NCBI RefSeq assembly: GCF_003334385.1
Contig: NZ_QOWN01000006.1
Length of the DNA stretch: 64,000 bases
Strand: one strand, 5' to 3'
From: Escherichia coli
Lineage (GTDB): Bacteria; Pseudomonadota; Gammaproteobacteria; Enterobacterales; Enterobacteriaceae
A program made the translations under genes and the position numbers. The notes beneath the pieces were generated by a model that was not told the DNA's origin, did no database searches, and saw only the letters and a program-made list of their open reading frames with translations. Below, piece by piece: positions 16,237-47,085 of the stretch (the first letter of the stretch is position 1; every line of letters starts with the position of its first letter).

Positions 16237-16312
16237 TCCTCTGTAGTTCAGTCGGTAGAACGGCGGACTGTTAATCCGTATGTCACTGGTTCGAGTCCAG
16301 TCAGAGGAGCCA
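16237..16312 (+). tRNA. asnT: tRNA-Asn (anticodon GUU), integration site of island 1
   Basis: tcctctgtagttcagtcggtagaacggcggactGTTaatccg...gagcca; 76 nt; identical to three other copies in the window. Confidence 0.95.
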
Positions 16313-16473
16313 ATTTTCTGTTTTCATGCATCCTTGCAAATCTTTATCTGATGTTGATTCAACAGGTTAGTGTGAAAACTCTTCTCGGTGCATTCTGATT
16401 TTACCCTACGCATCGGGAAAAATTGGTGGTCAAATCTGGGATCAGGTTAGTTCGATAATGGAGTGACCCCCAT

Positions 16474-17389
16474 ATGTTCCTTACCGACGCAAAAATCCGC
16501 ACCCTCAAGCCTTCTGATAAACCCTTTAAAGTCTCCGATTCTCACGGTCTGTATCTGCTGGTCAAGCCGGGTGGCTCCCGCCACTGGTATCTCAAAGCTG
16601 GAGGTTGCGTCCCGCACACGGCAGCACCTGAGTAACATAATGCGCCATGCGGTCCATCAGGAGTTAATCGATACGAACCCTGCAGCAAACCTTGGCGGCG
16701 TGACCACACCTCCTGTCAGACGGCACTATCCTGCCCTGCCGCTGGAGCGGCTGCCTGAACTGCTTGAACGTATTGGGGCATATCATCAGGGCCGTGAACT
16801 GACTCGGCATGCCGTTCTGCTGATGCTGCATGTGTTCATTCGCTCCAGTGAACTGCGTTTCGCCCGCTGGTCAGAGATTGATTTCACAAACCGAGTCTGG
16901 ACGATACCCGCGACGCGAGAACCCATTATTGGCGTGCGTTATTCCGGCCGCGGGGCAAAAATGCGAATGCCGCATATCGTCCCCCTCTCAGAACAGTCCA
17001 TCGCCATTCTGAAACAGATTAAGGATATCACCGGTAATAATGAACTGATCTTCCCCGGCGACCATAACCCGTATAAGCCAATGTGTGAAAACACGGTCAA
17101 TAAGGCACTGCGGGTGATGGGTTACGACACGAAAAAGGATATCTGCGGTCACGGCTTCCGGGCAATGGCATGCAGTGCGCTGATGGAATCGGGTTTATGG
17201 GCAAAGGACGCAGTAGAACGCCAGATGAGTCATCAGGAGCGCAATACCGTGCGCATGGCTTATATTCATAAGGCAGAGCACCTAGAAGCCCGCAAAGCGA
17301 TGATGCAGTGGTGGTCGGATTATCTGGAAGCATGCCGAGAATCTTATGCACCGCCTTATACAATTGGTAAAAATAAGTTTATCCCATAG
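16474..17389 (+). pseudogene. int: P4-family tyrosine integrase of the HPI, disrupted by an internal deletion of about 350 bp that shifts frame near 16597
   Basis: N-terminus MFLTDAKIRTLKPSDKPFKVSDSHGLYLLVKPGGSRHWYLK in one frame stops at about 16635; the remainder (LEVASRTRQHLSNIM...) continues in another frame; the second integrase at 60256-61518 shows what the missing segment would be. Confidence 0.8.
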
Positions 17390-17582
17390 TATACTAACGA
17401 ATCCCTCACTCTGGCAAATTACCACCACCTCCACAGGAGGTGGTTCTATATAGACTTTTATCAACTTCATGACGAAAAACACCTATTTTATCCCAAAAGA
17501 AGACAATAGAGTCACAGAGGAATCAAAGAGCGACTCAATTGTCTTTGGACAGTCTGGTTGTGAGGTTAGAAAACAGTTACTC

Positions 17583-44390: not shown

Positions 44391-46412
44391 ATGAAAATGA
44401 CACGGCTTTATCCTCTGGCCTTGGGGGGATTATTGCTCCCCGCCATTGCTAATGCCCAGACTTCACAGCAAGACGAAAGCACGCTGGTGGTTACCGCCAG
44501 TAAACAATCTTCCCGCTCGGCATCAGCCAACAACGTCTCGTCTACTGTTGTCAGCGCGCCGGAATTAAGCGACGCCGGCGTCACCGCCAGCGACAAACTC
44601 CCCAGAGTCTTGCCCGGGCTCAATATTGAAAATAGCGGCAACATGCTTTTTTCGACGATCTCGCTACGCGGCGTCTCTTCAGCGCAGGACTTCTATAACC
44701 CCGCCGTCACCCTGTATGTCGATGGCGTCCCTCAGCTTTCCACCAACACCATCCAGGCGCTTACCGATGTGCAAAGCGTGGAGTTGCTGCGAGGCCCACA
44801 GGGAACGTTATATGGCAAAAGCGCTCAGGGCGGGATCATCAACATCGTCACCCAGCAGCCGGACAGCACGCCGCGCGGCTATATTGAAGGCGGCGTCAGT
44901 AGCCGCGACAGTTATCGAAGTAAGTTCAACCTGAGCGGCCCCATTCAGGATGGCCTGCTGTACGGCAGCGTCACCCTGTTACGCCAGGTTGATGACGGCG
45001 ACATGATTAACCCCGCGACGGGAAGCGATGACTTAGGCGGCACCCGCGCCAGCATAGGGAATGTGAAACTGCGTCTGGCGCCGGACGATCAGCCCTGGGA
45101 AATGGGCTTTGCCGCCTCACGCGAATGTACCCGCGCCACCCAGGACGCCTATGTGGGATGGAATGATATTAAGGGCCGTAAGCTGTCGATCAGCGATGGT
45201 TCACCAGACCCGTACATGCGGCGCTGCACTGACAGCCAGACCCTGAGTGGGAAATACACCACCGATGACTGGGTTTTCAACCTGATCAGCGCCTGGCAGC
45301 AGCAGCATTATTCGCGCACCTTCCCTTCCGGTTCGTTAATCGTCAATATGCCTCAGCGCTGGAATCAGGATGTGCAGGAGCTGCGCGCCGCAACCCTGGG
45401 CGATGCGCGTACCGTTGATATGGTGTTTGGGCTGTACCGGCAGAACACCCGCGAGAAGTTAAATTCAGCCTACGACATGCCGACAATGCCTTATTTAAGC
45501 AGTACCGGCTATACCACCGCTGAAACGCTGGCCGCATACAGTGACCTGACCTGGCATTTAACCGATCGTTTTGATATCGGCGGCGGCGTGCGCTTCTCGC
45601 ATGATAAATCCAGTACACAATATCACGGCAGCATGCTCGGCAACCCGTTTGGCGACCAGGGTAAGAGCAATGACGATCAGGTGCTCGGGCAGCTATCCGC
45701 AGGCTATATGCTGACCGATGACTGGAGAGTGTATACCCGTGTAGCCCAGGGATATAAACCTTCCGGGTACAACATCGTGCCTACTGCGGGTCTTGATGCC
45801 AAACCGTTCGTCGCCGAGAAATCCATCAACTATGAACTTGGCACCCGCTACGAAACCGCTGACGTCACGCTGCAAGCCGCGACGTTTTATACCCACACCA
45901 AAGACATGCAGCTTTACTCTGGCCCGGTCGGGATGCAGACATTAAGCAATGCGGGTAAAGCCGACGCCACCGGCGTTGAGCTTGAAGCGAAGTGGCGGTT
46001 TGCGCCAGGCTGGTCATGGGATATCAATGGCAACGTGATCCGTTCCGAATTCACCAATGACAGTGAGTTGTATCACGGTAACCGGGTGCCGTTCGTACCA
46101 CGTTATGGCGCGGGAAGCAGCGTGAACGGCGTGATTGATACGCGCTATGGCGCACTGATGCCCCGACTGGCGGTTAATCTGGTCGGGCCGCATTATTTCG
46201 ATGGCGACAACCAGTTGCGGCAAGGCACCTATGCCACCCTGGACAGCAGCCTGGGCTGGCAGGCGACTGAACGGATGAACATTTCCGTCTATGTCGATAA
46301 CCTGTTCGACCGTCGTTACCGTACCTATGGCTACATGAACGGCAGCAGCGCCGTCGCGCAGGTCAATATGGGTCGCACCGTCGGTATCAATACGCGAATT
46401 GATTTCTTCTGA
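44391..46412 (+). CDS. fyuA: TonB-dependent outer membrane receptor for ferric yersiniabactin (FyuA/Psn)
   Basis: 673 aa; signal peptide; TonB-dependent receptor pattern ending in aromatic F. Confidence 0.9.
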   Translation: MKMTRLYPLALGGLLLPAIANAQTSQQDESTLVVTASKQSSRSASANNVSSTVVSAPELSDAGVTASDKLPRVLPGLNIENSGNMLFSTISLRGVSSAQDFYNPAVTLYVDGVPQLSTNTIQALTDVQSVELLRGPQGTLYGKSAQGGIINIVTQQPDSTPRGYIEGGVSSRDSYRSKFNLSGPIQDGLLYGSVTLLRQVDDGDMINPATGSDDLGGTRASIGNVKLRLAPDDQPWEMGFAASRECTRATQDAYVGWNDIKGRKLSISDGSPDPYMRRCTDSQTLSGKYTTDDWVFNLISAWQQQHYSRTFPSGSLIVNMPQRWNQDVQELRAATLGDARTVDMVFGLYRQNTREKLNSAYDMPTMPYLSSTGYTTAETLAAYSDLTWHLTDRFDIGGGVRFSHDKSSTQYHGSMLGNPFGDQGKSNDDQVLGQLSAGYMLTDDWRVYTRVAQGYKPSGYNIVPTAGLDAKPFVAEKSINYELGTRYETADVTLQAATFYTHTKDMQLYSGPVGMQTLSNAGKADATGVELEAKWRFAPGWSWDINGNVIRSEFTNDSELYHGNRVPFVPRYGAGSSVNGVIDTRYGALMPRLAVNLVGPHYFDGDNQLRQGTYATLDSSLGWQATERMNISVYVDNLFDRRYRTYGYMNGSSAVAQVNMGRTVGINTRIDFF

Positions 46413-46419
46413 TTATTGT

Positions 46420-46448
46420 AAAAGGGATACCGAAAAGGTATCCCTTTT
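46420..46448 (+). terminator. Intrinsic terminator after fyuA
   Basis: aaagggatacc gaaaa ggtatcccttt hairpin. Confidence 0.65.
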
Positions 46449-47085
46449 ACACCACTAGTTAAAACCAGTAACTCAGCAGAGTCGCAAAAAATATTAATCC
46501 ATAGTGATTATTTAAACAATGAAATTGCGATTAGGATAAATAGATTTAACTTTCTCGTTCCTTTCTCTCCTTATACTAAAGAAATAATCATATCAAAATA
46601 AAAATTCACAACAGTGCAACATTAAAAAATACAACCAACAAACAATCCTATATACAAGGCACATCTCCAGAATATAAAAGCACAGACAAACAACCTAAAA
46701 AAAACAACCCCATACATATAAATTATTTTATAGGTAAAATAGATTATATATTCTCATAGCTACCACAAACTATACTAGCCTGAACTATATTTATTCTGCT
46801 GCAATCAATGCATACATAACACAAATATCACTCAGGTACACTACTCAAACCACGCTGGGATTTTTCCTCAAGTTATAATCATCACCCCGAAAATCATTCG
46901 GCATTTACTCATTAAATAGTCACCCCATAGGCCTGTACATGTTTACTCAGAAATATACATCCTTTTCTCTGTCATAAACCCTCTAATTAATCATAAATAA
47001 ATACTTGTGACACCAATCTTTTTCCTTAACGGAACGAATTGTTGTGTAGAAGGAGATAATATTATGTCAAAAAAAATATCAGCCA

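Follow-up and report, generated by a model that had tools for sequence, protein, structure and literature searches.

The window analysed here is a 64,000-nucleotide stretch of an Escherichia coli genome (contig NZ_QOWN01000006.1), and the element in question is the high-pathogenicity island (HPI) within it, which carries the genes for the siderophore yersiniabactin (ybt). The island block spans window positions 16314-47418 (31.1 kb, 58% G+C) and lies 3' of the first tRNA-Asn gene of the window, the asnT copy (GTT; 16237-16312, + strand), which was recognised by both ARAGORN and Rfam and serves as the integration site. G+C content is 0.55-0.62 across approximately 18-46 kb, compared with about 0.47 in both flanks. 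In a blastn synteny comparison with K-12 (BW2952 as the reference), colinearity runs from msrQ-zinT through serU-mtfA-asnT and ends at window position 16316, with island DNA beginning at about 16314-16317. An Rfam scan returned no RNA family inside the island.

Eleven uninterrupted open reading frames (ORFs) make up the cluster, all of them stop-terminated and in the canonical order and orientation ybtS-ybtX-ybtQ-ybtP / ybtA / irp2-irp1-ybtU-ybtT-ybtE / fyuA, for a total of 28.8 kb of coding-dense DNA. Positions 16000-40000 of the window are 99.9% identical over 100% of their length to annotated islands such as that of E. coli NCTC10444 (NZ_LR134092.1), and the window ORFs correspond gene for gene to the RefSeq ybt annotation of that locus. 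The original prediction, made from the sequence alone, was of GC-rich ybt cargo 3' of mtfA/tRNA-Asn that constitutes a yersiniabactin HPI at asnT with the full ybt set. Both parts are borne out: the tRNA-Asn gene, the raised G+C content and the 11 ORFs are present, and gene order, family matches and the 99.9% DNA identity to annotated islands all agree.

Proteins and promoters of the ybt cluster

Salicylate synthase is encoded by ybtS (irp9; 17583-18887, − strand, 434 amino acids), which matches TIGR03494 with 678 bits (cutoff 325) and the Irp9 structure, PDB 2FN0, with 962 bits over 434 amino acids. Next to it on the same strand are ybtX (18915-20195, 426 amino acids), a major facilitator superfamily transporter identified from the RefSeq annotation of the 99.9% identical locus and a weak RhtX/FptX-family match, and the genes for two half-size ATP-binding cassette (ABC) transporters. 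Of these, ybtQ (20188-21990, −, 600 amino acids, permease plus ATPase) is an intact ORF named from the same RefSeq locus, while ybtP (21977-23779, −) matches chain A of PDB 6P6I with 1247 bits over residues 31-600. The start of ybtP is ambiguous, with an ATG at 23779 giving 600 amino acids and the RefSeq/PGAP start at 23689, 30 codons further downstream, giving 570; the protein in the 6P6I structure (chain A) has 600 amino acids, as long as YbtP read from the ATG at 23779. These two proteins had been described as ABC exporters. YbtPQ has an exporter fold, yet cryo-electron microscopy identifies it as an importer of ferric yersiniabactin (PMC7002159), so that, with YbtP matching 6P6I, the word "exporters" describes the fold and must be replaced by import as the function.

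The rightward genes begin with ybtA (23946-24905, +, 319 amino acids), an intact ORF for an AraC-family activator with matches to the C-terminal AraC-type helix-turn-helix. It is followed by irp2 (25096-31203, +), encoding the nonribosomal peptide synthetase (NRPS) HMWP2 of 2035 amino acids, and by irp1 (31291-40782, +), encoding HMWP1, a hybrid polyketide synthase (PKS)/NRPS of 3163 amino acids; the former was assigned from Pfam, PDB fragments and motifs, the latter from Pfam, motifs and allele comparison. The thiazolinyl imide reductase gene ybtU (irp3; 40779-41879, +, 366 amino acids) matches TIGR01761 with 534 bits (cutoff 189) and the YbtU structure, PDB 4GMF, with 829 bits over 365 amino acids, and ybtT (41876-42679, +, 267 amino acids) is an intact ORF for a type II thioesterase, again named from the RefSeq annotation of the 99.9% identical locus. 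The salicyl-AMP ligase gene ybtE (42683-44260, +, 525 amino acids) carries that name in RefSeq and belongs to the aryl-acid adenylating enzyme family, scoring 591 bits against TIGR02275; this is under the dihydroxybenzoate-specific cutoff of that model, as expected of a salicylate enzyme. Finally, fyuA (psn; 44391-46412, +, 673 amino acids) encodes the TonB-dependent ferric-yersiniabactin/pesticin receptor, as supported by PDB 4EPA and by TIGR01783 (498 bits). The ybt proteins other than YbtS, YbtU, YbtE and FyuA have no dedicated NCBIfam hidden Markov model.

The domain order of the two megasynthases was read from Pfam scans of five overlapping segments of HMWP2 and HMWP1. HMWP2 has the canonical ArCP-Cy1-A-PCP1-Cy2-PCP2 architecture, with PP-binding (22-82), Condensation (150-535) and AMP-binding (575-920) domains in its N-terminal half, a C-terminal A-domain subdomain that is split by a methyltransferase-like insert at approximately 1182-1279, and PP-binding (1412-1474), Condensation (1530-1905) and PP-binding (1952-2013) domains in its C-terminal half. 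HMWP1 is likewise canonical, KS-AT-MT-KR-ACP-Cy3-MT-PCP3-TE: its PKS part consists of KS (27-515), AT (551-846), methyltransferase (1093-1194), KR (1559-1729) and PP-binding (1823-1888) domains, and its NRPS part of Condensation (1948-2266), methyltransferase (2593-2693), PP-binding (2832-2894) and thioesterase (2915-3139) domains. Key residues of HMWP1 are in place (KS Cys198/His338/His376, AT Ser641, ACP S1853, Cy3 D2049, PCP S2858 and TE Ser2980), and across both proteins the five carrier serines, the three Cy-domain DxxxxD motifs and the A-domain TSGSTGTPK are all kept. A different domain order, or less than 90% protein identity to the known proteins, had been named in advance as grounds for abandoning the identification; the order is canonical by Pfam, and FyuA (99.8%) and Irp2 (about 99.3% over fragments) lie far above that identity with respect to PDB chains.

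The first of these figures comes from PDB 4EPA, "Pesticin receptor", which agrees with FyuA at 652 of 653 aligned positions. The second comes from HMWP2 residues 101-546 and 1475-1910, the Cy1 and Cy2 parts covered by PDB 7RY6 and 7JTJ (chains deposited as HMWP2 and Irp2), each with about three differences besides the tag; the shorter HMWP2 fragments PDB 5U3H and 2N6Z are strong matches too. YbtS, YbtU and YbtP match 2FN0, 4GMF and 6P6I with near-identity bit scores, the YbtP score extending over 570 amino acids. A structure search with Irp1 found no HMWP1 chain in the PDB. For Irp2, at least 1000 public contigs contain the identical sequence. An identical Irp1 is known from 11 E. coli contigs in public data and represents a rare allele, 12 residues from the commonest one; it is 99.3-99.6% identical to HMWP1 alleles of E. 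coli and Klebsiella pneumoniae, and in its 90%-identity cluster of 25,242 members the named ones among those listed are all yersiniabactin polyketide synthase HMWP1. Beyond these, DNA identity from irp1 to fyuA is 97.2% with Salmonella enterica subsp. diarizonae and 87% with Klebsiella michiganensis. Fragments of irp1 also turned up in a metagenome-assembled genome labelled "uncultured Rhodocyclaceae bacterium" (URNG01000177.1; 98% protein and 98.9% DNA identity) and in "Prolixibacteraceae bacterium JC049" (SACZ01000224.1; 91% protein and 88.4% DNA identity), and both are most likely enterobacterial contamination or mis-binning.

Regulatory sites were scored against the Fur consensus GATAATGATAATCATTATC. 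A Fur-box-like site with 4-5 mismatches lies in the divergent ybtP/ybtA region (23856-23880), and the irp2 promoter combines an inverted repeat, ACCCGAAACGGG-N10-CCCGTTTCGGGT (24988-25021, +), with a Fur-box-like site at 25033-25051; elsewhere in the 31-kb island every candidate has more than 5 mismatches. The fyuA promoter has the inverted repeat ACCCGAAACAGG-N10-CCCGTTTCGGGT (44271-44304, +) followed by a weaker Fur-box-like site (44317-44335), so that irp2 and fyuA share the arrangement of a 12-nucleotide inverted repeat just upstream of a Fur-like box, and a degenerate copy of the repeat occurs near ybtA. As sequence motifs, these elements fit the published control by Fur and YbtA. A terminator scan reported no terminator after fyuA, though a perfect hairpin is visible at approximately 46418-46446.

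Left and right ends of the island

On the left, the attachment core (attL side) is formed by the 3' 17 nucleotides of asnT, CCAGTCAGAGGAGCCAA, at 16297-16313. With up to 3 mismatches allowed, the only matches to this 17-mer were the 3' ends of the four tRNA-Asn genes, and there is no attR. Just inside the left end is a P4-type tyrosine integrase pseudogene (16474-17389, +). Alignment to the intact int of strain MS8345 (1263 bp, 420 amino acids) revealed a single clean deletion of 347 bp between 16596 and 16597, and since 347 is not a multiple of three, int is a frameshifted pseudogene. It persists as two ORFs, which align to an integrase model of 413 positions at 8-46 and 159-396 and also match PHROG integrase families, and it is annotated as "frameshifted" in NZ_LR134092.1. 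About 2248 genomes contain the int flanks versus 1985 that contain the 347-bp segment, and among the spread samples listed the deleted form was present in 5 of about 32 and 6 of 40 genomes. The deleted int is thus a minority allele, at an estimated 12-15% or so of island-positive complete genomes; an 80-bp query spanning the junction did not separate deleted from intact int because the search joins both halves, so this frequency is an estimate from subtraction and the spread samples.

On the right, 46413-47418 (+) is an A+T-rich remnant (33% G+C) of the right arm of the ancestral conjugative element, as recognised by comparison with strain EC-129 (NZ_CP038453.1, locus L011). It consists of the fyuA-distal spacer and the first approximately 118 codons of a 308-amino-acid hypothetical gene, and it aligns to EC-129 at 99.9% (L011 positions 17588-20297) and 98.6% (20505-21230) identity, up to window position 47424. 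In EC-129, fyuA is followed by this 308-amino-acid gene, an AlpA-family regulator in the excisionase position, a virB type IV secretion system (T4SS), a coupling protein and mobC. At 46698-46710 the window spacer lacks 207 bp that are present in EC-129 (L011 20298-20504), and a 13-bp overlap between the two blocks of the alignment suggests a small repeat-mediated deletion. The possibility that the interval between fyuA and yeeJ holds a second, unknown cargo was considered and rejected, as this 1-kb A+T-rich stretch is fully explained as a remnant of the integrative and conjugative element (ICE). No Pfam, PHROG or NCBIfam match was found in 46413-47418, including the first 106 residues of the chimeric ORF described below, and tblastx of this interval against the Salmonella and Klebsiella loci was negative, the homology of those loci ending at the fyuA stop or 33 bp later.

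Base-by-base alignment places the switch from ICE to yeeJ at 47418/47419, with one shared G, and K-12 homology returns in blastn at window 47418, which is nucleotide 276 of yeeJ. The K-12 sequence missing at this joint amounts to 584 bp, the asnT-yeeJ spacer plus yeeJ codons 1-92. The junction is in frame, leading from the ICE-derived "...QQIIDTPL" to the YeeJ sequence "LRKLNQFRTF..." at codon 93, so that a chimeric ORF (47086/47104-47814; 236 amino acids from 47104) reads through it with about 105 island-derived codons followed by YeeJ residues 93-202. The ICE ORF's own start (MSKKYQPLLITHYMSTW... in EC-129) is in a 24-codon dead-end frame owing to a 1-nucleotide poly-A frameshift at 47065-47104, and as a result annotation pipelines use an internal ATG, at 47104, as the start of the chimeric ORF. 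The right limit of the island had been set at 47085; the real junction is 333 bp farther right, inside yeeJ.

What lies beyond the junction is a yeeJ remnant (47419-49862, +), defined by blastn against K-12 BW2952 and the junction alignment, which has three more deletions relative to K-12 of about 3.7 kb, 0.28 kb and 0.45 kb, the last spanning the 3' end; it is annotated as pseudogene fragments in NZ_LR134092.1. The "YeeJ-like gene" that was thought to border the island is accordingly a chimera onto a decayed remnant and not an intact gene. No signal peptide and little of the beta-barrel remain in the 236-amino-acid chimera, whose tail is out of frame as a result of the 3.7-kb yeeJ deletion, and the NCBIfam inverse-autotransporter N-terminal model matches the chimera only at residues 111-219. 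The exact ORF is found on at least 1000 public contigs. That it is a selectively retained, expressed protein, for example a fragment with a cytoplasmic or regulatory role that is inherited along with the island, seems to us highly improbable. Frequent truncation of yeeJ has previously been linked to the neighbouring asnT island (PMC5595812).

Immobilisation, spread and predicted function

The arrangement at 16314-47418 is almost certainly that of the common-type E. coli HPI, in which the ybt cluster entered asnT within an ICE and was then fixed. At the right end, one deletion took out everything from codon ~118 of the first gene to the right of fyuA through codon 92 of yeeJ; lost with it would have been attR, the spacer between asnT and yeeJ, and the genes for excisionase, T4SS and mobilisation. 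With int inactivated and the right arm and attR deleted, the island is unable to excise or transfer by itself, and it can spread further only by vertical inheritance or when large segments that include its flanks recombine homologously. A unique deletion at the fyuA border that removed the direct repeat and adjacent backbone, leaving the island fixed, has been described for the common type, as has its spread, in which F-mediated conjugation delivers large pieces of the chromosome that then recombine homologously; ECOR31 retains the undeleted ICE form (Schubert et al. 2009, PMC2606025). The description of the island as "complete" consequently holds for the siderophore genes but not for the mobile element, given the int pseudogene, the missing attR and the deleted right arm.

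This model is also consistent with how the island is distributed. At least 80% of window 16000-40000 is present in 2235 of 5426 complete E. coli genomes (41%; Megablast). In 2037 genomes a match covers 80% or more of the right-junction region (46413-50000, which includes the breakpoint and the yeeJ deletions), with 1922 records at 99% identity or more, and the ICE arm is found in 176; together, these two groups approximately account for the 2235 island-positive genomes. Calves, cattle, chickens, pigs, wastewater and humans are the sources of the closest matches. In sum, the island is common in E. coli genomes and previously published, which upholds its portrayal as well described and not novel: the island is already known in every respect examined, breakpoints included.

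Several other histories were weighed against this one. An island that has kept its mobility, as a complete element of the kind found in Yersinia pseudotuberculosis or the ECOR31 ICE, would have a P4-type integrase gene adjoining the tRNA-Asn gene, as is seen here, and would have relatives in the 176 E. coli genomes with ICE-type versions. This has next to no probability for the window, where int has a frameshifting 347-bp deletion, no second 17-bp att core flanks the island, the excisionase, T4SS and mob genes are missing, and the island stops on the right at a deletion joint within yeeJ. It is also scarcely probable that this lineage acquired its island separately, from another species through site-specific integration, with a right-end deletion of its own thereafter. 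Experimental transfer integrates the island at any asn tRNA gene (PMC2606025), and the flanks are 97-99.6% identical to database genomes versus 99.9% for the island, both of which would be compatible with a separate arrival. The same junction, however, is shared by the 2037 genomes noted above and the same chimeric ORF by at least 1000 contigs, and separate deletions are not expected to have identical breakpoints, as argued in PMC2606025.

The remaining alternative concerns function and not origin, namely that the ybt cluster is a decaying, nonfunctional remnant and the strain makes no yersiniabactin. Its immediate neighbours int, the ICE ORF and yeeJ are all pseudogenised, and the exact Irp1 allele is the rare one found on 11 contigs, 12 residues from the commonest. 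Against this, the 11 genes are uninterrupted over 28.8 kb of coding-dense DNA, the motifs for catalysis and carrier function are preserved, the 12 Irp1 substitutions all lie away from the catalytic residues that were checked, and the promoter motifs are conserved, which together make decay very unlikely. The view that we favour, a fixed common-type island with working siderophore genes, has points that weigh against it as well. The pathway steps set out below are established HMWP1/HMWP2 biochemistry applied to intact genes, the promoter elements are consensus matches only, and sequence can predict but not demonstrate expression and siderophore production. The chains 4EPA, 7RY6 and 7JTJ are ones that we take to be Yersinia proteins, and the Irp1 scan of genome contigs returned Salmonella diarizonae, Raoultella and Klebsiella michiganensis together with 3 fragments or unrelated loci, and no Yersinia.

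Under the favoured reading, the pathway would begin with the conversion of chorismate to salicylate by YbtS, after which YbtE would adenylate salicylate and load it onto the aryl carrier domain of HMWP2. The single A domain of HMWP2 is predicted to supply cysteine to PCP1, PCP2 and PCP3, with Cy1 and Cy2 forming two thiazoline rings, one of which YbtU would reduce. The KS-AT-MT-KR-ACP module of HMWP1 would then add a dimethylated, reduced malonyl unit, and Cy3, MT and PCP3 a third, methylated thiazoline, before release by the TE domain, with YbtT expected to edit mis-primed carriers. Ferric yersiniabactin would be taken up through FyuA in a TonB-dependent manner and then through the inner-membrane importer YbtPQ. 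The four promoters would be activated by YbtA and repressed by Fur with iron. There is no phosphopantetheinyl transferase on the island, since the 11 ybt genes plus the int remnant and the A+T-rich remnant to the right of fyuA fill nearly all of its 31.1 kb, and this activity has to be supplied by the core genome (EntD); EntD or ClbA is named as its source in E. coli in PMC3708854. Judged by its gene content, this genome is probably able to make and take up yersiniabactin.

The significance of these results is one of annotation: the window has a probable capacity for yersiniabactin, a recognised fitness and virulence factor, on a fixed chromosomal segment and not on an active mobile element. 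The mapped breakpoints reproduce, at the nucleotide level, the published model, according to which a single conjugative ancestor lost its mobility in E. coli and was subsequently disseminated by recombination, and the island opens no new question.

Neighbouring loci and known island types

The island had also been taken to mark an extraintestinal pathogenic E. coli (ExPEC)-type or similar lineage. In the B2 ExPEC strains 536 and CFT073 the serU (TcpC) and asnW (colibactin) sites are occupied, and asnW is also occupied in RS218 (PMC7545054). Both sites are empty here, as 14709-16316 and 49882-59002 are colinear with K-12 and contain no insertions. The marker claim fails on this account and on the prevalence of the island: an element found in 41% of complete E. 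coli genomes, and in varied hosts, is by itself no ExPEC marker in a genome with empty serU and asnW sites. The flanks of the island (1-16236 and 47419-64000) are 97-99.6% identical to their best-matching genomes, compared with 99.9% for the island, and at 99% identity or more there are 85 records over the left flank versus 2487 over window 16000-40000, which is almost all island. This contrast would fit a mosaic flank, or recombination of the island into a background that the database samples less densely.

A tRNA-Ser gene was located by ARAGORN at 15156-15245, and so were further tRNA-Asn copies, in K-12 order, at 55786-55861 (−), 57610-57685 (+) and 60019-60094 (+). The fourth tRNA-Asn gene, asnV, is also occupied, by a second P4-type integrase that is split into ORFs at 60154-60786 and 60880-61518 and is paralogous to the island int; an integrase-domain gene (62956-63759, −) and an Rfam EFASI RNA match (63814-63984, −) lie farther along. 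Since ldtA is directly 3' of asnV in K-12, a further island begins at this point and extends past the end of the window, and at least 80% of the 60019-64000 stretch is common to 394 genomes. Elsewhere, 222 bp at 14487-14708 replace approximately 1 kb of the K-12 zinT-serU segment including yodB, which appears to be absent from this locus. The glycosyltransferase family 9 gene yeeL (50033-51148) is uninterrupted over 371 codons in the window and annotated as intact in NCTC10444, and is a pseudogene in K-12. A match to the small RNA rseX (6245-6334) adjoins a 35% G+C stretch (6001-7000) that holds the start of a 362-amino-acid porin ORF (6616-7704).

Among known HPIs, those of Yersinia pestis and Y. 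pseudotuberculosis resemble the window in gene set, domain architecture, tRNA-Asn site and P4-type integrase. In Yersinia, both direct repeats are retained, and the A+T-rich right part, which varies, includes the excision factor. ICEKp of Klebsiella pneumoniae, a mobile element (Lam et al. 2018, PMC6202445), has the ybt locus in common with the window, K. pneumoniae HMWP1 alleles being 99.5% identical. ICEKp reportedly comprises int, ybt, a mobilisation module and variable cargo, in that order; the window is without the mobilisation module. The ICE-type HPIs of E. coli (ICEEc1 of ECOR31, EC-129 and UMN026) share with the window the ybt core and the 1 kb to the right of fyuA, but they continue into the 308-amino-acid ORF, an AlpA-type excisionase, the virB T4SS and mobC, whereas the window has nothing of this past codon ~118. 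The features that define an ICE, namely an intact tyrosine integrase, an attL and attR pair, and excisionase, T4SS and mobilisation genes, are absent from the window.

The closest counterpart is the common-type HPI, exemplified by PAI IV of strain 536 and PAI-CFT073-asnT (PMC2606025), which likewise resides at asnT, measures about 31 kb at 57% G+C and contains the 11 ybt genes. The two features that set this type apart, insertion at asnT instead of asnV, asnU or asnW and a deletion at the fyuA-side border, are both found here. Most common-type HPIs have a full-length int, unlike the window copy with its 347-bp-deleted minority allele. In the remaining respects the two agree, with the right direct repeat lost, a deletion that extends into the adjacent backbone, and 99.9% DNA identity.

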